64,000 nucleotides of DNA. It comes from a virus. Location: positions 55,267 to 119,266 of IMG/VR virus record IMGVR_UViG_3300033153_010139. One strand, given 5' to 3'. Position 1 is the first letter of the stretch. Each line of letters starts with the position of its first letter. The notes beneath the pieces were generated by a model. The model was not told the origin of the DNA, made no database searches, and saw only the letters and a list, made by a program, of their open reading frames with translations. A program made the position numbers and the translations under genes. Below are positions 15,850 through 58,341 of the stretch, in pieces.

Positions 15850-16410
15850 TCAGCGCTGACTCTGGAGGCGCTTGATCCGCCCGCGGCGCTCGCGGATCTC
15901 CCGCTTGAGCTTCTTGACCGCAGACTCGGCGCGCTTCCGCTTCTTCTCCCATGCGGCTAGCTTGGCCTCGGCCTTCGTGATCTCGGCCTTCTGGTAGGCC
16001 ACGCCGGTCAGCTTCTCGGGCTCCGACGGCAGCGGCTTGATCCGCACGCGCCGGCCCTCGGCCCACTTCGGGACCGTCTTGTACCACCGGCACTTCTCCT
16101 TCGTGCCCTGGACGTACCACGAGACCAGAGAGCAGAGGTCGATGAGGACCGGCTGCGGTATCGCGGCGCCGCCGCTGGCGAGGCCGCCCAGCTGATCGAT
16201 CGCGTCCACGGCGAGGCGCTCGGTGCGAATGATCTTCAGCGTGTTGCCGTGCGCGGTGACGGAGTGCTGGCGCGGGGCGTAGTAGACGACGCTCAGCGTG
16301 AGGTTGCGGAGGGGCCCGCCAGCCATGCTGACGCCCGAGTAGCTCGCGCACGCGCAGAACAGGCCCCGGATGTCCCTCCCATCGTAGCGGGTCTCGTTCT
16401 GGATCTTCAC
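15850..16410 (-). CDS. Hypothetical protein with internal tag (DAIDQLGGLA) and C-terminal coiled coil
   Basis: GTG at 16410 just after the upstream stop; the longer ORF-track start overlaps 16419..16955. Confidence 0.6.
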   Translation of the reverse strand: MKIQNETRYDGRDIRGLFCACASYSGVSMAGGPLRNLTLSVVYYAPRQHSVTAHGNTLKIIRTERLAVDAIDQLGGLASGGAAIPQPVLIDLCSLVSWYVQGTKEKCRWYKTVPKWAEGRRVRIKPLPSEPEKLTGVAYQKAEITKAEAKLAAWEKKRKRAESAVKKLKREIRERRGRIKRLQSQR

Positions 16411-16418
16411 CGGGCGGG

Positions 16419-16955
16419 CTACTCCCCGCGCTGGATCCGACCGAAGAGGCTGCCCAGGAGCGCCCCGGCCCGCAGCTCGGGCGGGGGGATCGCCGGGCGA
16501 TCCTCGGGCACCGGCTTCGCGGGCGTCGTCGGGCAGGTGATCTGAGCCGCCAAAGCCATCTCGGGCTCCTGGGCGGGCTCCTGGGGCTCCTGGGGGGCCT
16601 CTGGTGCCTGGGCCGCGGGCTCGATCCCGGCCTCGGGGAGCGTGACCGGGTCCGCCTCCGGGCGGGGCACCGGCTTGGGCTTCGGCTTGGGCTTGGGCGT
16701 CGCCTCGGCCTTGCCCTCGACCTGATCGAGCAGGCGCTGGATGGCCTTCCTGCGCTTGGGGGTTGGGCCCTCGTCGATCAGGCCCCGAAGCACGCCGGCC
16801 AGCGCAGCCAGCTCCTCGGTGTCGCCGTCCGGCAGATTCCACCGGACCTGGACCTTCCACTTCTTCGCGTAGGCGTCGAGCCAGGCGGACAGCTCCTCGG
16901 ATGCCGCGTCGTGGATCGCGTTGTAGAGCTTGTAGGACGTGAGCAGCAGTTTCAT
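16419..16955 (-). CDS. Hypothetical protein, Pro/Lys/Glu-rich tail
   Basis: AAGGA RBS; GGGTAGAAC motif upstream. Confidence 0.7.
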   Translation of the reverse strand: MKLLLTSYKLYNAIHDAASEELSAWLDAYAKKWKVQVRWNLPDGDTEELAALAGVLRGLIDEGPTPKRRKAIQRLLDQVEGKAEATPKPKPKPKPVPRPEADPVTLPEAGIEPAAQAPEAPQEPQEPAQEPEMALAAQITCPTTPAKPVPEDRPAIPPPELRAGALLGSLFGRIQRGE

Positions 16956-17025
16956 GGCGTAGTCCTTTCTCTGTGTTCTACCCGGCTGTGCGGGGTCAGG
17001 TGTTGCGCGCTCAGAATCTGGCGCA

Positions 17026-17958
17026 TTAGGCCGCCGCCCCGTTGTCGTCGGTCTTGGGCTTGGTCCGCAGGCTGTCCAGCGAGACGGGCGCGGACTTGGG
17101 CTGCTGGAGCAGGAGACCCTGCACCAGAGCCGCGATCGTGCTGCTGCTCGTCTCGGGGAGACCGGCGGCCTCGACCAGGGCGGAAATCGCCGCGTCGATG
17201 GGGTGGGGCGGGAGCTTGGCGGCCGTCTTGACCTCGACGACCGTCTTGGGCTCGGGCGCGGGCTCGGCGACCGCGAGGATCGTGACCGGCATCTCCTCTG
17301 CTATCTCGGCAGCTTGCTTGAGGACGCTCTTGACGACGTCATCGGGCATCGAGCCGCTCGGATCCATCTCGACCGGCGCCAGGGCCGCGAGCTTCTCGAT
17401 CGTGCTGACCTTGACGTTGGCCATCTCGACGCCCAGGAGCTTCGCGCAGACAGGCCCGAGGCCGGTCTTGATCGAGGCGGGCACCGTCAGGGGAGCGGCG
17501 CAGCGACCGCAGATCCCGCGCTGCCAGACCTGGATCTTGTGACCGGCTTCCTTGCCGTCCACGAGCCAAGCGATCACGTCGCCGATCATGTTGATGTTGA
17601 CGGCGGTGGCGTGCTGGTTCTTCTTGGTGCCCTGCGTGGTGCGGAACCGGCGGGCGCCGTGCGTGTCGTCCACGCAGCCGAGGTACTTGTAGGAGCGCGT
17701 GTTGTCATCGCCGCAGAGCAGGTAGACGAACCAGCGATCCTTCTCGACCTGCTCGACGGTTCCGTCGGCCTGCTTGACGTCGTCCACGGCCCGCTTGATG
17801 TAGTAGGTGTGGCGGACGCTGCTCGCCTTCTCGACGAGGGTAGTGACCGCGTGCCCGGCCAGCATGAACTTGAGGCAGTTCGGTCCCCAGGGGAGGGCCA
17901 TGCCCGGGTCGAGCGTCTTCTTCGCCAGATTCTTCGTGCTTACGTGCTTGAGTGCCAT
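17026..17958 (-). CDS. DUF6011-like zinc-binding protein with tag (STIEKLAALA)
   Basis: 'CGRCAAPLTVPASIKTGLGPVC'; AAGGA RBS. Confidence 0.7.
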   Translation of the reverse strand: MALKHVSTKNLAKKTLDPGMALPWGPNCLKFMLAGHAVTTLVEKASSVRHTYYIKRAVDDVKQADGTVEQVEKDRWFVYLLCGDDNTRSYKYLGCVDDTHGARRFRTTQGTKKNQHATAVNINMIGDVIAWLVDGKEAGHKIQVWQRGICGRCAAPLTVPASIKTGLGPVCAKLLGVEMANVKVSTIEKLAALAPVEMDPSGSMPDDVVKSVLKQAAEIAEEMPVTILAVAEPAPEPKTVVEVKTAAKLPPHPIDAAISALVEAAGLPETSSSTIAALVQGLLLQQPKSAPVSLDSLRTKPKTDDNGAAA

Positions 17959-17981
17959 GTGGGTTTCCTTCCTTCCACTGG

Positions 17982-18450: not shown

Positions 18451-19341
18451 ATGGAGGTCACCGTGGCTGGTACACGTTCTACCCCGAAGCTCTACTCCTA
18501 CCAGGGTCGCCAGTGGCCGCTGCGCGATCTGGCCGAAGCGCACGGCATGGACGTGGGCACGCTCAGGAGCCGCCTCTACCGCGGACTGTCCTTGGAGGCG
18601 GCGCTGGCGCGGCCGGTGGGACCGGCGAACAACCCGAGGCGCAAGCAGGCACCGCACCACAAGACCGCCAAGCGGCTGCTCGGCAACACGTACGGCGAAC
18701 TGACTGTCGTTGGCTACGAGACCGGCCCCGGCTGGAAGTGGAAGTGCCGGTGCTCGTGCGGAGCCGCGGTTCTGCGCGGCCAGAGCGACATGCTGCAAGT
18801 CGCCAGGAACAGCGTCGGCGCGTCCTGCAGCACGGCCCAACACCGCGGCGGGCTACCGCCATTCGAGACCATGCCCGAGTACTCCGTCTGGGGTTCGATG
18901 CGCGCAAGGTGCAACAACCCGAACAACAAGCGCTATCCGCGCTACGGCGGACGCGGCATCAAGGTCTGCTCTCGGTGGAATGAACCGTACAACGGCTTCC
19001 TCCGGTTCGTGCGCGACATGGGCCGCAGGCCGTCGCCGGAGTTGACCATCGAGCGCGTTGACAACGACGGTGATTACGAGCCGGACAACTGCGAGTGGGC
19101 AAGCCGGAAGCAGCAGGCGCGGAACCGCGCAACCAACCGCCACCTGACCATCGACGGTGAAACGCGGACGCTGGCCGAGTGGAGCGAGTTGCACGGAATC
19201 CACTCGGCCACCATCAGCAACAGGCTGGTCCGGGGCTGGCCACCGCGTGTTGCCGTGTCAGCGCCGCCGATGAGCCCACGCGAGATGCAACAACTGAGCG
19301 CCGCAGTGCGGCGCGAGAAACGGAAGAGGGGCGAGACATGA
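18451..19341 (+). CDS. HNH homing endonuclease
   Basis: 'YGGRGIKVCSRW...F..DMG.RPS..LTIERVDNDGDYEPDNCEWA'. Confidence 0.85.
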   Translation: MEVTVAGTRSTPKLYSYQGRQWPLRDLAEAHGMDVGTLRSRLYRGLSLEAALARPVGPANNPRRKQAPHHKTAKRLLGNTYGELTVVGYETGPGWKWKCRCSCGAAVLRGQSDMLQVARNSVGASCSTAQHRGGLPPFETMPEYSVWGSMRARCNNPNNKRYPRYGGRGIKVCSRWNEPYNGFLRFVRDMGRRPSPELTIERVDNDGDYEPDNCEWASRKQQARNRATNRHLTIDGETRTLAEWSELHGIHSATISNRLVRGWPPRVAVSAPPMSPREMQQLSAAVRREKRKRGET

Positions 19342-20363
19342 GCATCAGCAGGGAGACGTGCCAGGCGGTCATCTTGGGAGCAGGTTGTGGCGATGCTCTC
19401 GGAGCGCCGACCGAGTTCCACCACATGGACAGCATTCGGCGCCAGTTCGGCCAGGACGGGATCCAGGAGCTGGTGCAGACGTCCGGCCGGTACACCGACG
19501 ACACGGCGATGTTGATCGCGCTGGCCGAGGGCCTGCTCGATGCGCACGGAGGCGCCCAGAGCTGGCGCGGCTACCCCGAAGCCCCAATGACCAGCCCGGA
19601 CTTCGTGATGCCCTACGTCGCCAGGAGTTTCGTCGAGTGGTCCAACTCCGACCAGACCGGCCGCGCTCCCGGCAACACCTGCCTGGGCGGCTGCCGCAAC
19701 ATGGAGAAGGGCATGTCCTGGCGCGAATCCGGGATCGCCCGCTCGAAGGGCTGCGGCGGGATCATGCGGGTGGCCCCCGTCGGGCTGGTCTACTCCGACG
19801 CCGGGGATGTCCTGAAGATCGCCCAAGCGCAGTGCACCTGCACACACGGACACCCGTCCGCCTACCAGGCTGCGCAGCTCGGGGCACTCGCTGTCCACCT
19901 GCTCGCGCGTCGCGGGCTCCCGGCATCCGACCTGCTCGAAACGCTCCGCGAGACGCTGGCCGTGATGCCCGACCCCGACCCCACGCTGACCGACCTGCTC
20001 TGGCGCGTCCGCGGGGCCCTCGATCTGGTCCACACAGGCAAGGCCGGGCCGCACGAGGTCCAGCAACACATGGCCGGCGGCCCCAAGAACCTGGGCGAGA
20101 GCTGGCACGGCGACGAGGCGCTGGCGTCGTCGCTGTTCTGCTTCCTGCTCGCGCACGAGGCCGGCGAGGGCTACATCGAGACCGTGCGCTACGGCGCCAA
20201 CACCGACGGCGACAGCGATTCGATCGCAACGATCGCGGGCGGCATGGCCGGAGCCTACTGGGGGCTGGGCGAGAAGGGCGTGCCCCAGAGCTGGATCGAC
20301 CAGGTCGAGAGTGCCGACTACCTGCTGACGCTGGCCGACCGGCTCCACGCGGCGGCGCTGTGA
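19338..20363 (+). CDS. ADP-ribosylglycohydrolase (DraG/ARH family)
   Basis: GDALGAPTEF, YTDDT, G.IMRVAP, THGHP, GDSDSIATIAG. Confidence 0.9.
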   Translation: MSISRETCQAVILGAGCGDALGAPTEFHHMDSIRRQFGQDGIQELVQTSGRYTDDTAMLIALAEGLLDAHGGAQSWRGYPEAPMTSPDFVMPYVARSFVEWSNSDQTGRAPGNTCLGGCRNMEKGMSWRESGIARSKGCGGIMRVAPVGLVYSDAGDVLKIAQAQCTCTHGHPSAYQAAQLGALAVHLLARRGLPASDLLETLRETLAVMPDPDPTLTDLLWRVRGALDLVHTGKAGPHEVQQHMAGGPKNLGESWHGDEALASSLFCFLLAHEAGEGYIETVRYGANTDGDSDSIATIAGGMAGAYWGLGEKGVPQSWIDQVESADYLLTLADRLHAAAL

Positions 20364-20773
20364 AGCTGATCGACCTCACCGGCTCGGATCGCCGGTTGCG
20401 CGTCCGACGCGTGAACGAGGAAAGCCTGGCGCGCTACGTGGCTGCCGAGGCGCGCAAGGATGACACGTGGGTCGTCGATGTCCGGCACGGCGGCACGGTG
20501 GCCAACGCCTACGGCTACCCCGCCGAGACCGAATGCGCGCTGGCGGTCGCCAGCCCGGCCGGGTTGGTGATCGTCTGGCTCGCGCGGGCCAGCGCCAACG
20601 CGACGACCGAGCGGGGTGCGGCCGAAGCGTGCCTGCTGGGCGCCGGTGACCTGTGGGACGGCCGCGTCAAGCGCGAGGAGCGCAAGGACGCGGCGTGGGA
20701 GCTGATCAAGGCGACCTTCGCCGAGGAGATGCCGGTCGTAGACCAGCTCGCATCGCTCGTGGGGGCGGCATGA
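20360..20773 (+). CDS. Hypothetical protein with C-terminal tag (PVVDQLASLV)
   Basis: GTGA overlap with upstream stop. Confidence 0.65.
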   Translation: MKLIDLTGSDRRLRVRRVNEESLARYVAAEARKDDTWVVDVRHGGTVANAYGYPAETECALAVASPAGLVIVWLARASANATTERGAAEACLLGAGDLWDGRVKREERKDAAWELIKATFAEEMPVVDQLASLVGAA

Positions 20774-20949: not shown

Positions 20950-21293
20950 CCGGGCCCGGCGAGACTGTGGAGCTGCTGCCCCCGTGGCCGCACGGCGCGA
21001 CCGGAACGGTGGTACGTGCCGAGGACGATGGGCGCATCGCCGTGCGGTTCGACTGCCGGTCAGCGCTGCCGCCCGACAAGCAGGTCATCCTGGTCTACCC
21101 CCAGGACATCAGGCCATGCCTCGATCCGCGCAAGAACGCCCGCCGGTTCGAGCTGATCAACAAGGAGATGGACGACGGGGAACTGACCGCCGAGGAGGCG
21201 ACCGAGCTGGAGAGCCTGGAGCAGTGGTGCGACGAGGCGATGGACAAGATCTGCCCGCTGCCCGAGCCGCCAGCGATTGGAGGAGAGGAATGA
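20946..21293 (+). CDS. Hypothetical protein (SH3/KOW-like N-terminus)
   Basis: GTGA overlap; 'GATGTVV'. Confidence 0.55.
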   Translation: MTGPGETVELLPPWPHGATGTVVRAEDDGRIAVRFDCRSALPPDKQVILVYPQDIRPCLDPRKNARRFELINKEMDDGELTAEEATELESLEQWCDEAMDKICPLPEPPAIGGEE

Positions 21294-22114
21294 CCAAGGT
21301 CGCAGTCATCGGAGATGTCCACGGGCACGCCACCCAGCTGCTGGCCGCGCTCGATCGCGTGGAGACCGAAGGCGTGGATCGCATCATCCTGCTGGGCGAC
21401 TTGATCGACCGGGGCACCGGCTCGATGGCGTGCCTACGGCTCGCGCAGACGCGAACCTTCCGGGCGCGCAACGGACGGCGCTACAGCCTGGAGATCGTCA
21501 AAGGCAATCACGAGGACGCCTACGTCCGACTCGCGGACGGAATCCCCAAGCCGGGGCGGGATCGCGTTTCGCCGGCAGAATCGCACCCGTTCTACGGGCG
21601 CCTGACCGCGGACGATCTGGCCTGGATGCGCGGCCTGCCGCACTACATCCGCGTTGACGAGCTGAACGTGACCTGCCTGCACGGCGGCGTCACGCCCTTC
21701 CAGTTCGATCTGGACGTGGCCGGACCTTGGGTCCTGCGCGCACGCTACCTGAGCGACGAGGGCCACGCGCTGGTCTCGACCATGTCCAGCGAATGGTTCT
21801 GGGCCGACACCTACAACGGGCGGTTCGGCACGATCGTGTTCGGCCACGAGGGGCACACGCTGCCGACCCGCTACCCGCACGCCATCGCGCTCGACGGCGA
21901 GGGCTTCGGGCGGCTGCACGGCGTGATCCTCTCCGACGAGCCGAACGACAAGCCGGAGGCCGCTTTCACGATCGCCTACGGCTCGCGAAGGGTCGTCAAC
22001 CACAAGCGCCTGTCCGAGCGCCCCATGCGGGTGCACGGCGGTTGGCGCCGAGACGCTCGGCTGCGGGAAGCGCAGAAGCGCACAGCACAACGCCTGCTCT
22101 GGGGGAATGCGTGA
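21290..22114 (+). CDS. Metallophosphoesterase (PPP/PrpA-ApaH-like)
   Basis: GDVHG, GDLIDRG, GNHE, HGG. Confidence 0.85.
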   Translation: MTKVAVIGDVHGHATQLLAALDRVETEGVDRIILLGDLIDRGTGSMACLRLAQTRTFRARNGRRYSLEIVKGNHEDAYVRLADGIPKPGRDRVSPAESHPFYGRLTADDLAWMRGLPHYIRVDELNVTCLHGGVTPFQFDLDVAGPWVLRARYLSDEGHALVSTMSSEWFWADTYNGRFGTIVFGHEGHTLPTRYPHAIALDGEGFGRLHGVILSDEPNDKPEAAFTIAYGSRRVVNHKRLSERPMRVHGGWRRDARLREAQKRTAQRLLWGNA

Positions 22115-22650
22115 CGAGAAGGTACCGGAAGCCGAAGATCTTCACCGAAGACCCTGACCAAATGGCGGCCATGCGCCGCTGCGGCCAGTGCACGGCGTGC
22201 TGCACGTGCCCGAGCTTGAGCGTGCCCGACTGCAAGCGCCTCGACGCGCACTGCGTGCACCTGCGCCGCGGGCGCGCGAAGGCGAGATGCCCAGGGTGCG
22301 CCATCTACGACGCGAAGCCGGGCAACTGCCAGGACTACGCCTGCTTCTGGCGGCTGGGGATGCTCGGCCGACACGAGCGCCCGGACAAGCTGGGCATCAT
22401 CTTCGACACGGCGGCGCCGACGGTGCAGAAGGTGATCGCGGCAGCTGGCGTGCCGGTCGTGCTCGCGCGAGAGACCTACCCGGGCTCGTCCAACAACTCG
22501 CGCACGAAGATAGCGATCCTCGCCATGGCGGACAGCTTCGGCGTGATCCGCGTCGGCGTTGCGGCCGGTCCGATCGTTCACGCGGCGACGCAGGAGATTA
22601 CCGACAAGGTCATCGCGGCCATCGAAGCGGTGGAAGCGGAGAGCGCATGA
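22111..22650 (+). CDS. YkgJ-like Cys-cluster protein
   Basis: CGQCTACC ... C.IY..KP..C.DY.C.W. Confidence 0.7.
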   Translation: MTRRYRKPKIFTEDPDQMAAMRRCGQCTACCTCPSLSVPDCKRLDAHCVHLRRGRAKARCPGCAIYDAKPGNCQDYACFWRLGMLGRHERPDKLGIIFDTAAPTVQKVIAAAGVPVVLARETYPGSSNNSRTKIAILAMADSFGVIRVGVAAGPIVHAATQEITDKVIAAIEAVEAESA

Positions 22651-23039
22651 TCGAGCGCCGGGTGATCTACGACGAGACCGACGTCAAGCTCGTGATGCGC
22701 TTCGCGCAGGAGAACAAGAAGGGCGAGGTCGTCGAGCGCCGTTACGCCGCCCGGCGCAGCGCTGGCGGGAAACACGAGTGGTACGTCACCTTGACCCCCT
22801 CTCGGGCGTACGGGTTCGATGACGTGGCCTGGGCGCGGCGCTACTCGAAGATCGTCAAGCGGTTCAAAGAGTTCGCGGAGGGCGCCCACGGCAAGGGCTG
22901 GAGGACGGAGGTCGTCGAGATGACCGACCGCCGCGTCAGGACGCGCGAGATCAAACAGCTCTACCCGGTCGTAGACGCGATCGAGGCTCTGGCGGACCTG
23001 GGACGCGCGACGAACAAGAGAATCGCAGGAGGAGTCTGA
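22647..23039 (+). CDS. Hypothetical protein with tag (DAIEALADLG)
   Basis: ATGA overlap. Confidence 0.65.
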   Translation: MIERRVIYDETDVKLVMRFAQENKKGEVVERRYAARRSAGGKHEWYVTLTPSRAYGFDDVAWARRYSKIVKRFKEFAEGAHGKGWRTEVVEMTDRRVRTREIKQLYPVVDAIEALADLGRATNKRIAGGV

Positions 23040-24283: not shown

Positions 24284-26647
24284 ATGGGCGAGCCTTACCT
24301 GAACGTTGTTGGCGTCGGAGACGCTCTGGAGTACCTGCGTCGCGTTCCCGACAGTTCCATCGACTCGTGCGTGGCGGACGCTCCGTACGGATTGGGCACG
24401 CCGCCGATACCGCAGGAGGTCATGTTCTTCTGGATGCGGGGCAAGGACTATAACGCCAAAGGCACCGGCTTCATGGAGGCGTCGTGGGACGCGTTCGTTC
24501 CGGGACCGCCGATCTGGAAAGAGGTCTACCGCGTTCTGAAGCCCGGCGCCTGGTGCCTGGTGTTCTTCGGCACGCGCACCTACGACTGGGGCGCGATGGC
24601 GATGCGGTTCGCCGGGTTCGAGGTGCAGGACTGCGCCTCTTGGATCTTCGGATCGGGCTTCCCCAAATCGCTGAACGTCTCGAAGGCCATCGACGCGCAC
24701 CTGGTCTCCGGCTACAGCGACTCCCATGCGCTGAAGCACGCGAACGACAACGTTCGCACCGGCGAGGGCCGGGAGCGCGCGAGCACGCACAACCGCGGAA
24801 TCTCAAGCCACGACGAGCGCGGCGGCAGGACCATTCGCGACGAGCCCGCGACTGAGGACGGCAAGCGCTGGCAGGGCTGGGGCACGGCAATGAAACCGGC
24901 CCAGGAGCTTGTCGCGATGGCGCGCAAGCCGTTCGACGGTACCTACGCCGAGCACGTGCTGGAGCACGGCACGGGCGCGTTGAACATCGACGCGAGTCGC
25001 ATTGCCGCCAGCGATCCGGTGAACTTCCAGTTCGGACCTTCCGAGAGCTTGGGGCATGGCTCGTTCAAGATGGCCGACTCGACGGACGCCAAACGCGCGA
25101 ACACGCTGTGGGAGAACACGCAGGGGAGGTGGCCAACGAACGTCCTCTTCCAGCACCTGCCCGAGTGCCAGCTGGTCGGCACGAAACGCGTGGCGACTGG
25201 AACGGCGGTGAAGCGGAATCTGCCACCCGAGGGCGCGAGCCGGCGGGTCGGCAACAAGGCACGCACGCAACGCGGCGATGACATTACCTACGCCGACGCG
25301 GACGGCAAAGAGGCCATCGAGGAATGGGACTGCGCGCCGGGTTGCCCGGTCGGCGAGCTAGATCGGCAGAGCGGCGTCAGCAGCTCAACCGGCGGTACCG
25401 GCGAGGCCAGCAAACGAACCGCGGGCAGCGGTAGCGTCTTCCAGCGCCCGAGTAACACGGGCGGATTTGGCGATACCGGCGGCGCCAGCAGGTTCTTTCT
25501 GACGCTGCCAGCGACGGTTGACCAATCGGGTTCTTCTATGCACGATGAAGCACAGGAGACGCTATGCAACGATCGTGCGAGCAGTGCGCCGGAACGTTCG
25601 ACGCCAGGCCGTCGGCAGTTGCACGAGGTTACGGGCGGTTCTGTACCAGGCAATGCGCCGGACTCGCGCGACGCGGTCGAGGGCGAGTTGACGCCTGGAG
25701 ATATTTCAGCAAGCGCGATGGGCGCTGGTACCGAAAATGGCGGGAACCCGGCTCGCGGAAGCTCCGCTCCCAGCTCGAAAACCGCTGGATCTGGGAGCAA
25801 GCGCACGGCGCTATCCCCGAGGGGCACGAAGTCCATCACCGGAACGGGCGCCAAACCGACAACACCCCCTCCAACCTCCAGCTCGTCACAGAAGCATGGC
25901 ACGACAACTATCACCAGCGACGACGAGAGGCGCACCGTAACAAGAACGGGCACGAGGAGAGACGCTGCCAGTGCTGCAAGCGATGGAAGCGCCTCAACCA
26001 CTTCAGCATTCGCCGGGCCGGAACCTACCATGGCTACTGCAAGCCCTGCGCCCGCCGGAAGCTCCAAGAGTGGCGTGCCGCGAACCGAGAACACCACAAC
26101 GCCTACATGCGAGCCTACCGTCGAAGACAAGCTCGCCTCTAGCCCCCGCTTCTTCTACCACGCGAAGGCGGCGAACAAGGAGCGCTGGTCCTACTGCCGC
26201 ACCTGCAAGATCGCGTTCCAGCACAGTCGCGAGCGCTTCAAGGAGCACGAAGCGCACAAGGACGAGGTCATCTCGCACCCAACTCAAAAGCCGCTCAAGC
26301 TCATGGAGTACCTGGTCCGGCTGGTCACGCAACCCGGCGGCGTCGTGCTTGATCCTTTCTGTGGTACCGGATCGACGCCGGTGGCAGCCAGACGGCTCGG
26401 GCTCAACTTCGTGACCTGTGACCTGGACGAGGACTACACGCACATCGCGCGCGCCAGGCTGGGGCAGATCGGTCGAGAGGCCGAGTCAGCGCTTACCTCC
26501 GGCGCCTACTTCTGCCCCGGCTGCAAGGCAAAGGGCGAGATCAAGCTGATCGCCCGGGAGGCCGTAGAGCGCATGCGCAAGCGCGGCAAGAAGACGACCT
26601 GCGTGAAGTGCATGGAGCGATACACCTACGAGGAGCTGGTCACGTGA
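24284..26647 (+). CDS. N4/N6 DNA methyltransferase carrying a ~219-codon in-frame insertion
   Basis: DAPYGL (motif IV variant), GSGFPKS, HPTQKP, VLDPFCGTGST. Confidence 0.85.
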   Translation: MGEPYLNVVGVGDALEYLRRVPDSSIDSCVADAPYGLGTPPIPQEVMFFWMRGKDYNAKGTGFMEASWDAFVPGPPIWKEVYRVLKPGAWCLVFFGTRTYDWGAMAMRFAGFEVQDCASWIFGSGFPKSLNVSKAIDAHLVSGYSDSHALKHANDNVRTGEGRERASTHNRGISSHDERGGRTIRDEPATEDGKRWQGWGTAMKPAQELVAMARKPFDGTYAEHVLEHGTGALNIDASRIAASDPVNFQFGPSESLGHGSFKMADSTDAKRANTLWENTQGRWPTNVLFQHLPECQLVGTKRVATGTAVKRNLPPEGASRRVGNKARTQRGDDITYADADGKEAIEEWDCAPGCPVGELDRQSGVSSSTGGTGEASKRTAGSGSVFQRPSNTGGFGDTGGASRFFLTLPATVDQSGSSMHDEAQETLCNDRASSAPERSTPGRRQLHEVTGGSVPGNAPDSRDAVEGELTPGDISASAMGAGTENGGNPARGSSAPSSKTAGSGSKRTALSPRGTKSITGTGAKPTTPPPTSSSSQKHGTTTITSDDERRTVTRTGTRRDAASAASDGSASTTSAFAGPEPTMATASPAPAGSSKSGVPRTENTTTPTCEPTVEDKLASSPRFFYHAKAANKERWSYCRTCKIAFQHSRERFKEHEAHKDEVISHPTQKPLKLMEYLVRLVTQPGGVVLDPFCGTGSTPVAARRLGLNFVTCDLDEDYTHIARARLGQIGREAESALTSGAYFCPGCKAKGEIKLIAREAVERMRKRGKKTTCVKCMERYTYEELVT
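25564..26142 (+). CDS. HNH endonuclease nested in an alternative frame of the methyltransferase gene
   Basis: AGGAG RBS; 'GRFCTRQC', 'HHRNGRQTDNTPSNLQLVTEAWHDNYH', CxxC pairs. Confidence 0.8.
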   Translation: MQRSCEQCAGTFDARPSAVARGYGRFCTRQCAGLARRGRGRVDAWRYFSKRDGRWYRKWREPGSRKLRSQLENRWIWEQAHGAIPEGHEVHHRNGRQTDNTPSNLQLVTEAWHDNYHQRRREAHRNKNGHEERRCQCCKRWKRLNHFSIRRAGTYHGYCKPCARRKLQEWRAANREHHNAYMRAYRRRQARL

Positions 26648-26835
26648 GGCTGCGGTGTGAGGGTTGCGGTACGGAGAACTCCTACAGCGGGTGGCACGAG
26701 CATGGGACGCTGCCGGGCGCCGTACTCTGCACATGCTGCCACTACGCGAGCTGGCCGGAACCGTGCCCGTGCGGCGACTGCGGACCGGCGAACGCCATCG
26801 ACGCTCTTGGCGATCTTGTGAGGACCGGCGCGTGA
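26644..26835 (+). CDS. Small Zn-finger protein with C-terminal tag (NAIDALGDLV)
   Basis: GTGA overlap; several CxxC. Confidence 0.6.
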   Translation: MRLRCEGCGTENSYSGWHEHGTLPGAVLCTCCHYASWPEPCPCGDCGPANAIDALGDLVRTGA

Positions 26836-27599
26836 GGAAGCGGACAGAGGCTCAACGGACCGAGGCGCTTGAGACGGGGATTTACCACGGCAATGCTCTG
26901 CAGCTCCTCAAGCACCTGCCGCCGAACAGCATCGATCTGTTGCTTACGGACCCCCCGTACAACACGTCCAAGGCGAACAACTTCCACACGATGGGCCGCA
27001 CCGGCATCAACTTCTCGTGGGACGGCGGCTTCGACCAGGTCACGTGGCTGCGGCTCGCCGACCCGGCGCTCAGGCCCGGCGCCAACGTGGTGATCTGGAA
27101 CGACTGGAAAAACCTCGGGCTGATCGCCGCCGCGCTGGAGCAGCTGGGCTACGACATCAAGCGCGACATTTCCTGGTGGAAGAGTAATCCGATGCCGCGC
27201 AACATCAGGCGGTCGATGGTCCAGCGAAACGAGCACGGCTTTTGGGCCGTGAAGCGAGGAGCTAAGTGGACCTTCAACCCGGAGCCCGGTCGGCCATACG
27301 AAGACGGCGTGTATCGCTACCCGATCCCGCGCGGATCTTCCGGCGCGGGCCGCGAACGGCACGAGACGAAAAAACCGGACGACATGTTCCGGGCGATCAT
27401 CCGACTCTTGAGCAACCCGCTCGACCGGGTGCTTGATCCGTTCGTCGGCGGTGGCACAGCCGCGTACGCGGCAGAGGCCGAAGGGCGCAGACACATCAGC
27501 TTTGAGCTTTCGGCGAAGTGGTACGCCGAGGCGCGCATACACCTGCTGGGGGCTCCGTCGGTTTCGGCGGTAGACCAGCTCGCTCAGATCGCACTGTAG
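26832..27599 (+). CDS. N4/N6 DNA methyltransferase (beta class) with C-terminal tag (SAVDQLAQIA)
   Basis: TDPPY, HETKKP, VLDPFVGGGT. Confidence 0.9.
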   Translation: MRKRTEAQRTEALETGIYHGNALQLLKHLPPNSIDLLLTDPPYNTSKANNFHTMGRTGINFSWDGGFDQVTWLRLADPALRPGANVVIWNDWKNLGLIAAALEQLGYDIKRDISWWKSNPMPRNIRRSMVQRNEHGFWAVKRGAKWTFNPEPGRPYEDGVYRYPIPRGSSGAGRERHETKKPDDMFRAIIRLLSNPLDRVLDPFVGGGTAAYAAEAEGRRHISFELSAKWYAEARIHLLGAPSVSAVDQLAQIAL

Positions 27600-27610: not shown

Positions 27611-28348
27611 GTGGACAACAACCGCCAGCTCATTCAGGAAATCGACATCAACGCCGTCATGGCGGCACTCCCCCATCTGCGCGATGCCCGTGGCAAGTTC
27701 ATCGGTATCGAGGCCAACATCGGCGCTGGAAAAACAGAGGCTTGCAACATGCTCTCGCGCATCCGGCAGGCGCACGACGGGCCGGCGATGGTCCTGTTCG
27801 AGCCGCTCATGGGCCGGTTCAAGGAGCTGCTCGGGCGCTACTACCAGGACCCGGCGCGCTGGGGTTTCACCTTCCAGATGCACGCGCTGCAAGCGCGGTT
27901 CCGGCAGCACACGCTCGCGGCCGAGCTGACCGCCAACGGCATCGACGTGGTGCAGGACCGCACGATCTACGCTGACGGGTGCTTCGGCATGACGGTCCGC
28001 GAAGACCACAACATGGACGAGGAGGAGTGGGGGATCTACGCCGACACGTTCGGGTGCATGAAGCGCAACCTGCGCTACCCGGACATCATCGTCTACCTCC
28101 GCACCGACCCCGAGACCTGCCATACGCGCATGAAGCGCCGCGCCCGTAGCGAGGAGGCTGGCGTGCCGCTCGACTACTTGCGGAGGATCCACGACAAGCA
28201 CGAGATGCTGGCCGCAGCGATGTCGCGCTACACGCGCGTTCTCATCGCGGACTGGGATGAGTACGGCGACATCGAGTCGCTGAACAGTAAGATCAACCGC
28301 GTCCTTCAGGAAGACCGACCTTTTCTTCGCGACTGGAACGGCGTATAG
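27611..28348 (+). CDS. Deoxynucleoside kinase
   Basis: IEANIGAGKT, FQ...R, QDRTIY.D, PDIIVYL...R..RRAR.EE. Confidence 0.9.
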   Translation: MDNNRQLIQEIDINAVMAALPHLRDARGKFIGIEANIGAGKTEACNMLSRIRQAHDGPAMVLFEPLMGRFKELLGRYYQDPARWGFTFQMHALQARFRQHTLAAELTANGIDVVQDRTIYADGCFGMTVREDHNMDEEEWGIYADTFGCMKRNLRYPDIIVYLRTDPETCHTRMKRRARSEEAGVPLDYLRRIHDKHEMLAAAMSRYTRVLIADWDEYGDIESLNSKINRVLQEDRPFLRDWNGV

Positions 28349-32409: not shown

Positions 32410-32653
32410 GCTGGAAGGAACCCACATCCGCTTTGTCTCGGCGCCGCCCAAGCCCAAGACGGCGGTCTGGTGGGTAGTGAACAAGCACGACGACGTTCAA
32501 CTCGGATGCGTGGGCTGGTTTGGCAGGTGGCGCAAGTACGCCTTCTACCCCAAGCCGGACACGGTCTACGAGCAGGTCTGTCTGCGGGAAATCGCGGACT
32601 TCTGCGAAACCGCTACCCGGGAGCACAGGAAGAGGTCCAGTGACGAAGCGTAA
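32402..32653 (+). CDS. Conserved-looking small phage protein
   Basis: 'LG.V.WFGRWRKYAFYP...CLREIADF'. Confidence 0.65.
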   Translation: MPELEGTHIRFVSAPPKPKTAVWWVVNKHDDVQLGCVGWFGRWRKYAFYPKPDTVYEQVCLREIADFCETATREHRKRSSDEA

Positions 32654-46495: not shown

Positions 46496-46761
46496 GCGTG
46501 CTGGACAACAACTGGCGCATCTACAAGGACCCAACGTACTCGCGCGCCGATAACCTCCCGCTCATGTTCAAACCGCGGCTGCCGCCGTCCGCCGTAGAAC
46601 GCTTGGCCGCTCTCGAAGATCCTGTGATCGCAGAGCGCATCAAGAAGTGGGACGAGGCACGAGCGCTGGGGGACAAGTTCGAGCTGCGCTCGATCGACTT
46701 CGTAGCCGACGAAGCGTGCCCGAGGGCTTACCCAATGCCGCGCCCGCCGAGCCTGGCGTAA
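46492..46761 (+). CDS. gp23-like fragment + tag
   Basis: VLDNNWRIYKDP + SAVERLAALE. Confidence 0.65.
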   Translation: MSVLDNNWRIYKDPTYSRADNLPLMFKPRLPPSAVERLAALEDPVIAERIKKWDEARALGDKFELRSIDFVADEACPRAYPMPRPPSLA

Positions 46762-47118: not shown

Positions 47119-47493
47119 CTACACGTCGCAGGTTGCGGCCAATCGCGAGATCGCGTCGTCGTCGAACCCGTCCGTCGATGTCCAGGTCATCGTGAGCAGG
47201 AAGGCGCCCTGGAGGAGCAGCGGCGTGGGACCTTTCCAGCCGGGTCCGGCGGTACCCATCAGCGACAAGAACCGACGCCAGGACATCCTGAGCTGGTGCT
47301 TGTCGTCGTCGTCCCAGAAGTCCCTCTTGATGCGGTAGCGATCATGCCCGTCGCCTTTGGTCCGGTACATCAGGAACGTGACCGAGCGCGGCGTTGCCGA
47401 GAACCCCCACTCGCCCTCGACCACGCCGTTCCGCGCGAGCTTCGCGAGCTTCTGGATGTCGGCGGGATCCTTTGGCTTGAACGGTGCTCTCAT
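47119..47493 (-). CDS. Hypothetical protein with C-terminal tag (DAISRLAATC)
   Basis: ATG at 47493 directly after the tRNA-like gene. Confidence 0.55.
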   Translation of the reverse strand: MRAPFKPKDPADIQKLAKLARNGVVEGEWGFSATPRSVTFLMYRTKGDGHDRYRIKRDFWDDDDKHQLRMSWRRFLSLMGTAGPGWKGPTPLLLQGAFLLTMTWTSTDGFDDDAISRLAATCDV

Positions 47494-51472: not shown

Positions 51473-52588
51473 ATGAGACTCCGCGCGCCGTCCATCAAGC
51501 TCAAGCCGTTCGTGAACGCGACCGCAAGCCTCGCCCCGGGGTCCGGCAAGCGCCCGCAGCTCGAATGCACGCGAATCGACGTGCTCGGCGACAAGGCGAC
51601 CTTCTCGGCCACCAATCTCAGCGAGACCGTGCGTCTGGTCCTTTCGGACGACGAGATGACCGGGGAGGACGGTTCCGTCTACCTGCCGTCCGTCAACCTG
51701 CAGCGCGTCGTGCGTGAGGCGAAGCGGGAGGACGTGGAAATCTCGTGGAACGGGAAGGCCCAGAAGGCGCTGGTGCAGTTCGGTTCGGTGCGCGTCTCGC
51801 TGCCCATCGAGCCGCCGGACAACCTCCCCCGGATCCCCAAGTTCGACGCGAAGGCGCCGTTCGTGACGCTCACTGGCGCCGCCCTGGCCGGCACGCTGGC
51901 GCGTACCACGTTTGCCGTGCAGTCGAACTTCATGGCGCGCGCGCTGGGCGGCGTGAGCATGAAGCTCAAGCCGGGCCAGCTGGAGGCGGCGGCGACCGAT
52001 GGAACCGCAATCGCGATCGTGCGCGTGCCCGTGTCCAACCCGTCGGCTGTTTCGGCGGAAGCCATCCTGCCTCCGATCTCCCACAAGACGATCGCCTGGG
52101 TCTGCGCTGACGACACCGCCAACGTTGACCTGCAGTTCGCCGAGAACTCGCTCAGGGTGCGCGGGCCGGACGGCGAGCTGACCTGGCGCCTGATGGTCGG
52201 CAAGTTCCCCGACTACGACGGGCACGTGCCGGAGAGCGCCCCTAAGACTGTCGAGGTCGAGCGGCGCAAGTTGCTGCTGTTCCTCGATAAGGCGCGGCTG
52301 CTCAAGTACGCCAGCTTGCCCGAATACACGTTCACGGCGCGGCGGGGTGAGCTGGAGATGGTGGCGACCGCCGGGATCGATGGGACCGTGCAGGCCACGT
52401 TGGAGATCGACTGGGTGTGGGAGGAGCTGGTGACGTCGCTGGATCCGCTCCTGCTGGAAGTGGCCGTCAAGGCGATGGGCGAGGACACCATCACAGTCGG
52501 CTTCGAGGCCGGCGACAAGCCGGTGCTCTTGCGCGAAAGCGGAGCGCTCCTCGAAAACCGCTACGCCGTTAGCCCCAGATTCAAGTGA
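51473..52588 (+). CDS. dnaN: DNA polymerase III beta sliding clamp
   Basis: 371 aa; SATNL, FAV, L.GV, ATDG, RL..GKFPDY, KPVL. Confidence 0.85.
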   Translation: MRLRAPSIKLKPFVNATASLAPGSGKRPQLECTRIDVLGDKATFSATNLSETVRLVLSDDEMTGEDGSVYLPSVNLQRVVREAKREDVEISWNGKAQKALVQFGSVRVSLPIEPPDNLPRIPKFDAKAPFVTLTGAALAGTLARTTFAVQSNFMARALGGVSMKLKPGQLEAAATDGTAIAIVRVPVSNPSAVSAEAILPPISHKTIAWVCADDTANVDLQFAENSLRVRGPDGELTWRLMVGKFPDYDGHVPESAPKTVEVERRKLLLFLDKARLLKYASLPEYTFTARRGELEMVATAGIDGTVQATLEIDWVWEELVTSLDPLLLEVAVKAMGEDTITVGFEAGDKPVLLRESGALLENRYAVSPRFK

Positions 52589-55436: not shown

Positions 55437-56542
55437 TGGACGAGTCGGGTGTGGCTGACGTTTGCGATCACCTCGGACTGAGGCGGGGCAGGCCGTACAC
55501 CAACAGGCACGGGCAGCAGCAGATGATGATCGGCTGCCCGCTCGCGCCATGGCACCACGATGACCCGACGGACCGCAACAAGAGCTGCTCGGTGCTGCTC
55601 GTCCCAGATGGCCCAAGCTACGCCAGGTGCTTCTCGCTCGCGTGCGACTACAAGGGGAGCTTCTTCCGTCTGGTCCAGAAGGTCGTCATCAGCCACAAGA
55701 ACGCGCCGCCGGATCTGATTGAACTGCTCAAGTGGGTGGCGAAGGTTGACGAGGACACGATCGAGAAGCGCATCGGCCGTGTGCAGGTGAAGGTCGAGGC
55801 GGACAAGCAGGCGTGGCACCATGTCGAGGGCGCTCGCGCCGGGAACAGGCTGCACGAGCGCGACGTGCTCGACGAGTCTGTATTCGCGCCGTTCTCTGGG
55901 AAGTTGCCGCCCTACGCTGTGAACACGCGCGGCATCTCGATCAAGGCGGCGAAGGCGTGGAAGCTCGGTCACGACGTTGAGCGCGGGCGGCTCGTGTTCA
56001 CCGTGCGGCGCAGCGATGGCAAGCTGGTCGGGCTGACGGGGCGAATCCTTCCGACCGTGGAGGCCCGGCTACGGAACCAGGGCTACGAGCCGACGAAGTA
56101 CCACAACTACTCGGGGCTCGACAAAGGGCGCTACCTCTACGGGACGCACACCTGGTCGAAGGGGCTGCCGGTCGTCCTGGTCGAGGGGCCGATCGATGCC
56201 GTGCGCACGTGGCAAGCGCTGCACCCGCGCGCGAACATCGGCGCGACGCTCGGCGAAGGCTTCTCACAGGAGCACAGGCGGACGATCAACTCGGCCTGGC
56301 CGGAGGAGGTCTACCTGTTCCCGGATGGCGATGTCGCCGGTCGGCGCATGGCCGAGAAGCTCCATCACATCCTGAAGGGGTTCCGCGTGATCAGGCTCAT
56401 GCGCTGCCCTGTGCGTTACGTTGAGGACGACGAGACCGGCGAGTTGCACGAAGTGGCGAGCGACCCCGGCGAGATGACGAACGAGGAAATCGTGCACGCG
56501 TTCGAGACCGCGGACGTGATCCTGCACAAGATCAGGTGGTAG
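55436..56542 (+). CDS. DNA primase (Zn-binding + TOPRIM)
   Basis: CP...H.D...C...C; LVEGPIDA; PDGDVAG. Confidence 0.85.
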   Translation: MDESGVADVCDHLGLRRGRPYTNRHGQQQMMIGCPLAPWHHDDPTDRNKSCSVLLVPDGPSYARCFSLACDYKGSFFRLVQKVVISHKNAPPDLIELLKWVAKVDEDTIEKRIGRVQVKVEADKQAWHHVEGARAGNRLHERDVLDESVFAPFSGKLPPYAVNTRGISIKAAKAWKLGHDVERGRLVFTVRRSDGKLVGLTGRILPTVEARLRNQGYEPTKYHNYSGLDKGRYLYGTHTWSKGLPVVLVEGPIDAVRTWQALHPRANIGATLGEGFSQEHRRTINSAWPEEVYLFPDGDVAGRRMAEKLHHILKGFRVIRLMRCPVRYVEDDETGELHEVASDPGEMTNEEIVHAFETADVILHKIRW

Positions 56543-56559
56543 AAGTGGCAGGAGCGACG

Positions 56560-57837
56560 ATGACGAAGAAGACGAGGCCCACCGCGCACGAGGTGATCGC
56601 GCGGCTCGGCGCTGCTGCGGTGACCTCTACATCGGTGCCGCCGAAACCGGCTGTCGCTGCGCCCAAGGCCAAGGCCGAGCCTAAGCCTAAGCTCGGGGCG
56701 GTGCCGCCGCTGCCGACGGCCGGGTTGGGCGACTTCCTGGTCGCCGGCGCGAACATTGTAGTCGCGCCCGATGTCGCGGAGCGCGCCGTCGAGCGCGCCG
56801 TGGCGAGCGGAGAGATCCTCACCTTTGCCGAGCTGGGGTGTGACGAGACCGGGATGGCCGGCGAGGCGATGCTCGTGCACCCCGCCTTTGTGCGTGCCGC
56901 GGCGCGGCGAGGCTTCGCGTTCTACGCGGGGCCGAGCGGTCGTGTGCGGCGATTCTCTCTCGCGTCCGATGGGCAGGCGCCGGTTGCAGCGCCGAAGGCC
57001 GCCAGCGTCGAGGGCGCGTTCTATCTGAAGCCGGCTTGGTTTGACGACCTGGCCGACTTCGTGGAGCGCGGCGAGACGGTGCTGTTGATCGGGCCAGCTG
57101 GCGCCGGCAAGTCCGAGTCCGTGGAGCGGCTGTTTGCCGAGCGCGGGCAGCAGCTCCGCATCGTGCCCTGCCACCAGCGCATGACGGCGAATGACCTGGA
57201 AGGCGGGATCGATTTGGTTGTCGAGGATGGGCACCAGGTCACCCGCTTCACGCCCGCCGACCCGGCAACAGCCTCGACGGAGGGGCACGGGCTGCTGCTC
57301 GACGAGGCGGACGCGGCGCCGGCCGAGGCCATGTACGCGGTCTACCGGTTGATCGACGGCAAGCCGATGCACATCCTGCGTAAAGGCTTGGACGCGGTGA
57401 TCCCGCGCGACGACGCCTTCCGGGTGGTTGGCACGCAGAACACCGAGGGCCGTGGCGATGACCGCGGGCTGCACCATGGGAGGAGCTACCAGGACGAGGC
57501 GTTCCTGGACCGGTGGCAGAACACGATCCGCGTGGACTACCCGAAGAAGGCCGATGAGGTGCTGATCCTGCGCAAGCGGTGCGGGATCTCCGGCGTTCAG
57601 GCCGAGCGGATTGTGGACGCTGCCTCCTCGTTCCGCAATGCGCTCAAGCACGACGAGATCCAGCTGGTCTGCTCGCTCAGGCGTACGCTGTCGGTCGCCG
57701 GCAACATCGCGGCTGGCAGGAGCCCGGCGGCGAGCTGGGGGTTCGCGGTGCTCAACCGGGCGACGCGCGAGGATGCGGACAAGCTCCCGGAGACGCTGCA
57801 TAGGATCTACGGCGACAAGTGGCGAAAGACGTCGTGA
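56560..57837 (+). CDS. CobS/CbbQ-like AAA+ ATPase
   Basis: GPAGAGKS, LLDEAD, TQNT.GRG, AFLDRW. Confidence 0.85.
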   Translation: MTKKTRPTAHEVIARLGAAAVTSTSVPPKPAVAAPKAKAEPKPKLGAVPPLPTAGLGDFLVAGANIVVAPDVAERAVERAVASGEILTFAELGCDETGMAGEAMLVHPAFVRAAARRGFAFYAGPSGRVRRFSLASDGQAPVAAPKAASVEGAFYLKPAWFDDLADFVERGETVLLIGPAGAGKSESVERLFAERGQQLRIVPCHQRMTANDLEGGIDLVVEDGHQVTRFTPADPATASTEGHGLLLDEADAAPAEAMYAVYRLIDGKPMHILRKGLDAVIPRDDAFRVVGTQNTEGRGDDRGLHHGRSYQDEAFLDRWQNTIRVDYPKKADEVLILRKRCGISGVQAERIVDAASSFRNALKHDEIQLVCSLRRTLSVAGNIAAGRSPAASWGFAVLNRATREDADKLPETLHRIYGDKWRKTS

Positions 57838-58130
57838 AGCGGTTTCGGGCCAGCGTCCACTTCGTGGACAACACCTATTGGGACGATGGGAACCGCTACA
57901 CCAGGCGCTACCACGAGTTCGCGACGCTTGCCGGGGCTGTCGAGTTCCGGCGGAAGACGTTGAAGGCGAAATGGTACGAGGCCACGAGCTACGAGACCGG
58001 CGAGACGGACAAGTTCTTCCTGCACGACGAAAGCCACGTCCATCTCGATCGACTGGACGGGGATGGCAAGTGGCAGCGGATCAAGAGCCCGGACGTCATC
58101 ACGCTGCTGGGCGGGGTCGCTGATGATTGA
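57819..58130 (+). CDS. Hypothetical protein with tag variant (DVITLLGGVA)
   Basis: 103 aa between the AAA and VWA genes. Confidence 0.6.
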   Translation: MAKDVVKRFRASVHFVDNTYWDDGNRYTRRYHEFATLAGAVEFRRKTLKAKWYEATSYETGETDKFFLHDESHVHLDRLDGDGKWQRIKSPDVITLLGGVADD

Positions 58131-58341
58131 CGGCGTGCGGGCGAACGAGTTTTCGGCGCCTCTCGACTCTGACGACTGCGATCACGGGAGCTGGGTGCGC
58201 ATTGTCGGCGAGTCGTGGAACGAGGGCATGGTCAAGATCGTCTGCGCGGGGTGCGGCTGGGCGCCGCTTCGCCCCTTCCCTGAGCGCGAGCGGCGTGACG
58301 CGGTGACCCGGCTTGCGGCTGTTGCAGGTACCGGTGATTGA
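58123..58341 (+). CDS. Small Zn-finger protein with C-terminal tag (DAVTRLAAVA)
   Basis: CDH...CAGCG. Confidence 0.55.
   Translation: MIDGVRANEFSAPLDSDDCDHGSWVRIVGESWNEGMVKIVCAGCGWAPLRPFPERERRDAVTRLAAVAGTGD

Follow-up and report, generated by a model that had tools for sequence, protein, structure and literature searches.

The tag and its carriers

We examined a 64-kb window of viral DNA, the final part of a single 119,266-bp contig (G000; 65.5% G+C), in which a ten-residue peptide with the consensus [S/D]-A-[V/I]-[D/E]-x-L-[A/G]-x-[L/I/V]-[A/V] (hereafter the tag) recurs on otherwise unrelated proteins. The contig's genes include those for tail sheath, tape measure and baseplate proteins, and its relatives encode T4-type head proteins (a gp23-like capsid protein, a gp20-like portal and an S77 prohead protease). 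A complete relative among the viral contigs (G003; 275,101 bp, direct terminal repeats, 70% sheath identity) has a gene order collinear with the contig (196 kb to 275 kb, then 1 to 40 kb), from which the contig represents approximately 43% of a jumbo phage genome. Judged by its sequence, the contig is a fragment of an uncultured T4-like jumbo phage of ~275 kb; it lacks a DNA polymerase gene and the region that houses most accessory genes in G003. Sheath identity is 52% for a second relative (G006) and 46% for a third (G007; 89% complete). No close cultured phage was found for the contig, and the tag-rich region gave no megablast match to cultured phages. Genes were called with our own codon-usage caller, which gave 156 genes on the contig, 91 in the window and 404 in G003; the G006 proteome comprises 175 proteins. 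The caller under-calls in G007 (229 genes in 203 kb), so that counts for that genome are lower bounds.

Thirty tag sites lie in 29 of the 91 called genes of the window, and two more lie in uncalled open reading frames (ORFs; sites 26791–26820 and 44723–44752). The initial annotation, whose coordinates were ORF ends or starts rather than motif positions, had reported the peptide on about 32 proteins, a figure that these 32 sites reproduce; all 16 of the peptides that it listed individually are present in the ORF frame and strand. Its 16 tagged ORFs between 41309 and 46761 are 16 sites in 15 ORFs, of which 14 are called and one is uncertain and uncalled (44576–44881). The underlying observation is real and larger than reported. 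The typical carrier has 60–190 residues, belongs to no family and sits in a long same-strand gene array.

Upstream of this dense block, two sites lie on the reverse strand: DAIDQLGGLA (16177–16206; gene 15850–16410) is internal, at residue 69 of 186 and at the same place in the orthologues of two relatives, and STIEKLAALA (17377–17406; gene 17026–17958) follows a DUF6011 zinc ribbon. On the forward strand, PVVDQLASLV (20732–20761; gene 20360–20773) lies 3 residues from the end of its protein and DAIEALADLG (22974–23003; gene 22647–23039) 11 residues from the end, the latter in a protein whose G003 orthologue is also tagged. NAIDALGDLV (26791–26820, forward) occupies the small uncalled ORF 26608–26835, and SAVDQLAQIA (27564–27593, forward) is appended to an N6/N4 DNA methylase (gene 26832–27599). 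Further forward-strand sites are SAVDLLADVA (33581–33610; gene 33371–33658), SAVELLAELS (33868–33897; gene 33616–33903, 1 residue from the end), SAVDRLAELA (34056–34085; gene 33900–34091, 63 residues, again 1 residue from the end) and SAVDRLGALA (34412–34441; gene 34088–34492), which directly follows a ribosomal L7/L12 C-terminal-like domain (residues 53–107; Pfam E = 4e-7). SAVDLLGNLA (37306–37335; gene 37276–37470) and SAVEKLGDLV (39463–39492; gene 39460–39816) are on the reverse strand and SAVEKLGDLA (41257–41286; gene 40855–41289) on the forward strand, the last two at the very C-terminus.

All sites of the dense block are on the forward strand. Gene 41309–42010 carries two, SAVDELAALS (41471–41500) and SVVDRLAATV (41858–41887). 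Then follow SAVDQLAAVV (42118–42147; gene 42007–42285), DAVTELGDLA (42732–42761; gene 42282–42773), which is appended to a staphylococcal-nuclease-like enzyme, and the weaker SVVERLAGLE (42841–42870; gene 42766–43029), the first site here that continues into a shared extension, DP..RV..[W/Y/F]D. SAVDRLAALA with the extension recurs at 43128–43157 (gene 43026–43268), 44275–44304 (gene 44026–44376) and 45770–45799 (gene 45695–45910). The remaining extended sites are TAIDRLAAVA (46036–46065; gene 45907–46257), SAVDRLAAKA (46370–46399; gene 46250–46495) and SAVERLAALE (46588–46617; gene 46492–46761). Sites noted without the extension are SAVDQLGEVA (43566–43595; gene 43410–43703), SAVDRLAELA (43994–44023; gene 43700–44029, 1 residue from the end), SAVDALAEIV (44723–44752; ORF 44576–44881), SAVDQMGDLV (45259–45288; gene 44800–45318) and PAVDQLADLA (45655–45684; gene 45523–45702). 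Within 44376–45318, the tagged ORF 44576–44881 overlaps the frame 44389/44800–45318, which is also tagged, and perhaps only one of the two is real. Downstream of the block lie DAISRLAATC (47128–47157, reverse; gene 47119–47493), 2 residues from the end, and on the forward strand DVITLLGGVA (58092–58121; gene 57819–58130), between genes for a CbbQ-like ATPase and a CobT-like VWA protein, and DAVTRLAAVA (58297–58326; gene 58123–58341).

Two of the extended proteins contain conserved pieces of essential phage proteins. The product of 44026–44376 contains a piece homologous to residues 55–124 of the major capsid protein (E = 1e-9), directly followed by the tag; this piece probably corresponds to the T4 region that triggers the Lit abortive-infection protease. 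The product of 43026–43268 starts with a piece resembling motif B of polymerase A (Pfam E = 0.022; BLAST against the G003 polymerase E = 0.007). A search for the longer module (tag plus extension) among 1.84 billion proteins returned 169 cluster representatives at E ≤ 0.001. Among the 150 of these that were listed, 140 have the core tag and 138 have 150 residues or fewer; one (P0187) is a repeat protein and a false positive. The capsid piece is present in 9 of the listed representatives and the polymerase piece clearly in 4, one protein having both, and a fifth match to the polymerase-piece pattern falls after the tag. Metagenome mini-proteins that combine a capsid or polymerase piece with tag and extension include P0155, P0166, P0172, P0176, P0182, P0199, P0205 and others. 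In the G003 polymerase the motif B piece lies just after an intein, and an origin of the mini-proteins from intein and homing-endonuclease traffic is possible. Inteins with homing-endonuclease domains occur in the G003 polymerase A and prohead protease (L014:880–3639, L021:11916–14747) and in the G007 class II ribonucleotide reductase (L146:15304–19386). Atlas look-ups pointed to the capsid-protein fragments and gave no lead for a conserved 189-residue protein.

Frequency, sequence features and modularity of the tag

A position-specific scoring matrix was built from 106 tag instances (proteins of more than 900 residues excluded from training) and applied at a threshold of 12 bits. It found 38 sites in 37 of the 156 proteins of the contig, 112 sites in 109 of the 404 proteins (27%) of G003, and 16 sites in the 175 proteins of G006, with at most 0.3 in shuffles of each. 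A simple pattern gave 33 matches in the contig's 156 genes, compared to a mean of 0.68 (maximum 5) in 1,000 within-protein shuffles, a frequency far above background; a tighter pattern gave 25 matches compared to 0.18 in shuffles, and the reversed contig proteome gave none with the pattern. Six-frame counts, which do not depend on gene calls, were 40, 131 and 17 for G000, G003 and G006, compared to 1, 7 and 2 in reversed ORFs. A loose six-frame pattern gave 35 matches in the window; six loose matches (4753, 14668, 18429, 22713, 30009 and 59743) look like chance occurrences in off-frame or unrelated contexts.

The tag occurs on both strands, in the frame and direction of its gene. Over the 32 window sites, Ser at position 0 is written as AGC 8 times and as TCN at least 12 times, and the Val or Ile at position 2 (the first residue being position 0) as ATC (9), GTG (8), GTA (8), GTC (4), GTT (2) or ATA (1). 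The use of both Ser codon families, AGC and TCN, shows that it is the peptide that is under selection, and the claim of free codon variation and peptide-level conservation holds. As a separate observation, the hexamer GTCGAC, the SalI site, is missing from the whole window (0 compared to 38.75 ± 6.3 expected); accordingly, Val-Asp in the tag is written GTA-GAC, GTG-GAC or GTC-GAT and never GTC-GAC. The hexamer is present in the relatives G001, G003 and G005, so its avoidance seems to be peculiar to this phage and its host.

The residues at positions 0 and 3 vary together. When position 0 is Ser or Thr, position 3 is Asp or Glu in 96 cases and Ser or Thr in none; when position 0 is Asp or Asn, position 3 is Ser or Thr in 24 cases and Asp or Glu in 23 (Fisher p = 1.4e-14). 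Because this covariation resembles that of a helix capping box, the tag is most likely a short, capped amphipathic α-helix of about three turns. A helical wheel suggests that A1, V/I2, L5, A/G6, L/I/V8 and A/V9 form one face, with positions 0, 3, 4, 7 and 10 polar.

The tag is strongly biased toward the C-terminus in all three genomes. It lies within 20 residues of the end at 24 of 38 sites in G000, 77 of 112 in G003 and 14 of 16 in G006 (63–88%), compared to 17%, 15% and 23% for uniform placement; only 2 of the 38 and 3 of the 112 fall within the first 30 residues. Within 5 residues of the end are 77 of the 166 tags (18 in G000, 47 in G003 and 12 in G006), and 29 of the 166 are more than 50 residues away, which suggests that a free C-terminus is dispensable. 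The statement that the window tags often stand a few residues from the stop agrees with our counts (12 of 30 within 5 residues, 17 of 30 within 20).

Outside the tag the carriers of a genome show no detectable similarity. With the tag masked, BLASTP linked none of the 109 G003 carriers to one another, nor any of the 37 in G000, and across genomes it found only ten pairs (nine G000–G003 and one G003–G006). On complete enzymes the tag is an addition, as previously described: the methylase domain spans residues 34–230 and the tag 245–254, and the SNase domain spans 43–144 and the tag 151–160. Among the methylase orthologues, the tag follows the last domain helix in 10 of the 12 closest and is missing from all 32 more distant ones, that of G007 included. 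In five cultured alphaproteobacterial phages the DUF6011 homologues end untagged, immediately behind the zinc ribbon, and those five genomes show no motif enrichment (0–3 matches compared to 0–4 in controls). The G003 family A DNA polymerase has three tag-like sites, located in insertions of 8, 22 and 13 residues relative to the G007 polymerase. In some G000–G003 orthologue pairs one member is tagged and the other is not. A Pfam scan of 20 window proteins found no curated family for the tag itself, and a tag profile searched against PDB sequences gave a single hit (E = 0.14). The tag is thus a module that is appended, inserted, gained and lost on unrelated proteins. Of the portable signal proposed in the initial annotation, the portable module is borne out (codons, masked BLASTP, gain and loss, terminal bias); its function as a signal is a matter of probability, weighed below.

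Two statements about where the tag is missing need amendment. No tag lies in the virion module within the window (1–15.8 kb), as stated, but a tail-module protein elsewhere on the contig (contig positions 21506–22414) is tagged. Similarly, DnaB, primase and clamp in the window are untagged, but the G003 polymerase carries its three copies.

Pfam and PHROGs scans covered 104 of the 109 G003 carriers (two were omitted for length and three because they span locus borders). Pfam found only eight unrelated families (ResIII helicase, DnaB_C/AAA_25, RNase H, SNase, phage DNA-binding zinc finger, RVT_3 and DUF6011), and PHROGs found endonuclease, DNA helicase, RNase H, DnaB-like helicase, primase/helicase and RecE-like exonuclease. 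All nameable carriers act on nucleic acids, except the L7/L12-like protein and the mini-proteins with capsid or polymerase fragments. The distribution of isoelectric points (pI) is the same for tagged and untagged small proteins.

A promoter-like box, GGGTAGAAC, is present in 21–24 of 124 G003 upstream regions, compared to ~1.8 expected; examples in the window are at 41295, 51458, 29647 and 23568, and the box occurs at many places in G003 (L012–L025). In many cases the distance from its start to the ATG is exactly 14 nt, and the transcripts may therefore be leaderless. The tagged gene arrays share this box with the clamp and MoxR genes described below. A second promoter-like box, TGTGAGAAC, precedes TTG starts, and both boxes are rare in structural operons. 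The T4 late-promoter box had no match within the window.

The tag varies by clade. The clade around G003 carries the same tag as G000. In G006 it mostly ends in -LAELA at the very C-terminus, 12 of 16 sites being within 5 residues of the end. The sister clade G007/G008 has a variant, [V/P]-L-D-x-L-[A/G/S]-x-[I/V/L], at the C-terminus: G007 has 22 matches compared to 3.0 in shuffles, 16 of them within 12 residues of the end (0.15 expected), and a six-frame control gave 18 matches compared to 1. That G007 is untagged, as the matrix from G000 and G003 had indicated (2 of 229 proteins), was rejected when a relaxed pattern revealed this variant. For the small tagged G007 proteins, no orthologue could be detected in any other clade; the tag is thus older than its carriers, its sequence drifting by clade. 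Such drift would be the behaviour expected of a ligand that tracks its receptor.

The window encodes further features beside the tagged arrays. A tmRNA on the reverse strand (38386–38801; Rfam RF00023, 157.9 bits) has an unusually long tag reading frame of 30 residues, and a called 48-residue 'gene' inside it (38616–38762) is probably spurious. The G003 tmRNA encodes a 9-residue tag, and that genome has 36 tRNA genes; G006 has 34 tRNAs and the G007 clade hardly any. A GroES-type co-chaperonin (Cpn10; E = 1e-16; 39813–40238, reverse) is 63% identical in G003 and was not found in G007. Other genes encode an ADP-ribosylglycohydrolase (19338–20363), a calcineurin-like phosphoesterase (21290–22114), a radical SAM protein (32640–33413), a deoxynucleoside kinase (27611–28348) and a 5'-nucleotidase (38939–39463). 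G003 additionally encodes a Ro60/TROVE protein with a vWA domain (L012:17340–19016).

Candidate receptors and competing explanations

The tag is very probably a docking or sorting signal of some kind, and a docking helix for a shared receptor fits all the facts. The helix, shown on a tail or a surface loop, would tether its carrier to one common receptor in the infected cell, and all copies may bind that receptor through the face formed by A1, V2, L5, A/G6, L8 and A9. The receptor may be located at the phage DNA-replication machinery, where the three copies inserted in the polymerase could provide avidity. We favor this location because of what the carriers do, the three copies inserted in the polymerase and the promoter class that the tagged arrays share with the clamp and MoxR genes. 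That the receptor is some intracellular hub tied to replication or DNA is our leading proposal, if a little short of an even chance.

The sole named candidate for this receptor is the phage's own β sliding clamp (51473–52588, forward), which is itself untagged. Pfam recognizes three DNA_pol3_beta domains in it, and PDB β clamps match at E = 5e-31. Its lineage is narrow: among 5.8 billion proteins there are 9 homologues with at least 47% identity, followed by a drop to 24%. Among the viral contigs it occurs only in G001 and G003, and cultured phages have at most 26% identity. Single-protein scans of the viral contigs with the clamp and with the VWA-peptidase gave no match. G007–G009 contain a clamp-loader-type AAA+ gene (92–94 bits; G007 L146:14200–15219), from which we guess that a clamp operates there, possibly the host's. 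The two clades show a complementary pattern, the G000/G003 clade having a clamp without a PF13177 clamp-loader and the G007 clade a clamp-loader without a clamp.

Two pairs of AAA+ and VWA genes, also on the forward strand, had been named as possible hubs. The first (29679–32095) consists of a MoxR-type AAA+ ATPase (29679–30809) and an HExxH peptidase/VWA protein (30806–32095) with intact HEAFH and DTSGS (MIDAS) motifs, and could act as a receptor or processing machine. The second (56536–60055) consists of a CbbQ-like AAA+ ATPase (56536–57837) and a CobT-like VWA protein (58334–60055). The first pair is absent from the variant-tagged clade G007/G008, which speaks against it as a hub; the second is present in both clades, G007/G008 included. 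With the variant tag in G007, the distributions of the clamp and of the MoxR/VWA-peptidase pair no longer match that of the tag, and the VWA-peptidase, found in 457 cultured-phage records, is not specific to tagged phages. Iyer et al. described MoxR paired with a VWA-peptidase in T4-like jumbo phages and suggested that the pair acts in virion assembly (PMC7824862).

Several points weigh against a receptor at the replication machinery, and against the clamp in particular. The sister clade G007/G008 carries its variant tag without a phage clamp (none was found there by tblastn, a clamp profile or PF02767), and the G007 polymerase, methylase and one more orthologue are untagged. The motif is unlike the clamp-binding consensus (below) and looks helical rather than extended. 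Competition of ~100 tiny proteins for the two sites of a clamp would be difficult to rationalize. The functional enrichment is less telling than it seems, since most non-structural phage proteins with an annotation work on DNA anyway, and the tagged L7/L12-like domain and capsid- and polymerase-fragment mini-proteins do not fit a replisome role. Because of what G007 shows, because the motif is helical and non-canonical, and because the carriers are so many, we regard the clamp as a doubtful candidate.

Next in standing is a capsid-targeting signal, with the helix binding the procapsid scaffold core or inner capsid and its cargo being packed and ejected with the DNA. This reading has the best precedent of all, in T4 (PMC3012670), and large masses of ejection protein can reportedly fit in giant phage heads (PMC7411985). 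The head genes are of T4 type; proteins of the receptor class in question (scaffold, capsid) are present in every clade, G007 included; and the carriers are small, lack mutual similarity and differ from clade to clade. A loosely similar D-x-L..L-A helix is also found toward the C-terminus of the putative scaffold, but comparison of the tag profile with the scaffold tail was not significant (probability 0.95%, E = 0.057). The tag sits at the C-terminus or internally rather than at the N-terminus, and the 12 residues upstream show no enrichment of [L/I/V]-x-E, the T4-type protease site (31 of 165 compared to 26.7 expected). A polymerase with three internal copies, RNase H, helicases and exonucleases make unlikely cargo; the promoter-like box of the tagged arrays is shared with replication genes and almost absent from structural operons; and pI does not distinguish tagged from untagged small proteins. 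On balance we consider capsid targeting unlikely.

No likelier is a degron or AAA+ handle, read by a host protease of the ClpXP, Lon or FtsH type or by a phage AAA+/VWA pair, which would serve scheduled clearance of early proteins or let 'bait + tag' mini-proteins deliver bound host factors. The strong C-terminal bias, most directly in G006 (12 of 16) and G007 (16 of 22), and the hydrophobic endings -LA, -LV and -I would suit such a role, as would the two AAA+/VWA pairs on the contig, one with an intact HExxH peptidase and MIDAS. Many substrates are natural for a protease, and the mini-proteins that join a conserved capsid or polymerase peptide to the tag resemble baits. However, a distance of 20 to more than 100 residues separates many tags from the end, others are located within the polymerase, and destruction of the replicative polymerase, methylase or RNase H is not obviously useful. 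The peptidase-VWA pair is absent from the tagged G007 clade and common in cultured phages, and we know of no such tag in the cultured phages that carry it. The tags encoded by the phage tmRNAs do not fit the motif (best scores −11.9 and 1.2 bits).

Less probable again is that there is no common receptor, the tag being a structural or self-association helix (oligomerization, condensate) in an ultra-divergent gene family, occasionally recombined. A1, A/G6 and A9 are small residues of the hydrophobic face, well suited to close packing between helices; some proteins have two or three copies, and one sub-family shares the longer module with the DP..RV..[W/Y/F]D extension. Against a divergent family, the 109 and 37 carriers show no similarity outside the tag, ten residues are kept while their surroundings diverge, and the folds to which the tag is attached (methylase, SNase, RNase H and polymerase) do not need it to be complete.

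At a similarly low level of credence we place the idea that the tag is a universal handle on more than 100 interchangeable small 'bait' domains, the mini-proteins derived from the most conserved peptides of the capsid protein and the polymerase (motif B) included. If so, the binders of the baits (for example host immune sensors that survey those peptides) would be dragged to a phage-controlled sink, be it the clamp, an AAA+/VWA remodeller or the procapsid, and the system would be the phage counterpart of viral adaptor-mediated target hijacking, operated through one short linear motif that about one protein in four carries.

An origin in a DNA- or RNA-level repeat, or in the composition of a 65% G+C genome where Ala and Leu are common, can be dismissed, given the shuffled and reversed controls, the constant frame and direction on both strands, the variation in Ser codons and the four Val codons, and a covariation between positions 0 and 3 that would be meaningless at the DNA level.

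Comparison with known systems

Returning to a docking or sorting signal as the preferred reading, several known peptides offer parallels. The capsid-targeting sequence (CTS) of T4 is N-terminal and is removed by the prohead protease at [L/I]-x-E. Like the tag, it is a peptide of ~10 residues that is the sole element common to diverse, fast-evolving small phage proteins. It marks a handful of proteins per phage, whereas the tag marks ~25% of the proteome, replication enzymes included, and is C-terminal or internal with no protease site. The CTS is reported to be portable to foreign proteins (PMC3012670).

Clamp-binding motifs (the β-clamp motif, the PIP box and the tails of T4 gp45 partners) are likewise short terminal motifs through which polymerases, nucleases, methylases and small regulators share a ring-shaped hub; the contig has its own β clamp, and the tag is found on polymerase A, methylase, nuclease, RNase H, helicases and exonuclease. 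The bacterial clamp-binding consensus is Q-L-[S/D]-L-F or Q-L-x-L-x-L. In contrast, the 106 tag instances show no fixed Gln, a Φ-[D/E]-x-L-[A/G]-x-Φ spacing (Φ, hydrophobic) and a capping box; there are ~100 carriers, and clamp and tag do not co-occur in G007/G008. Clamps are reported to take part in late transcription in T4 and Mu (PMC7892883, PMC12867686).

Encapsulin cargo peptides are short C-terminal peptides that load the interior of an HK97-fold shell and work on foreign proteins. They and the HK97 protease differ from the tag system in having one or few cargo proteins per shell. The HK97 prohead protease has a C-terminal targeting tail, and the targeting peptides of encapsulins and of this protease are of a different sequence type from the tag. 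Degrons of the ssrA type are also short, hydrophobic C-terminal peptides, read by AAA+ proteases, and this phage encodes a tmRNA; however, many tags are off the free C-terminus, and the G000 and G003 tmRNA tags do not match the motif. In bacterial microcompartments, encapsulation peptides are terminal amphipathic helices on a linker that address unrelated enzymes to one shell; no microcompartment shell genes were present among the genes annotated.

Our literature search, which covered texts outside supplementary files, found no description of a proteome-wide shared tag in a phage. Short address labels in phages are otherwise known on only a handful of proteins, as with the T4 CTS and the clamp-partner tails; here one helix marks ~25% of the proteins across a whole family of uncultured jumbo phages, and accessory genes that resist annotation gain their first common property. 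If the receptor were identified, more than 100 unknown proteins would be assigned a cellular destination in a single step. The clade-specific variants form a natural co-evolution series for locating the binding site, and a short, portable tag that is naturally attached to enzymes could become a targeting tool once the receptor is known. As a type, the tag can be grouped with sorting and docking peptides; what is new is how many proteins carry it, where in them it lies and how mixed a set they are.

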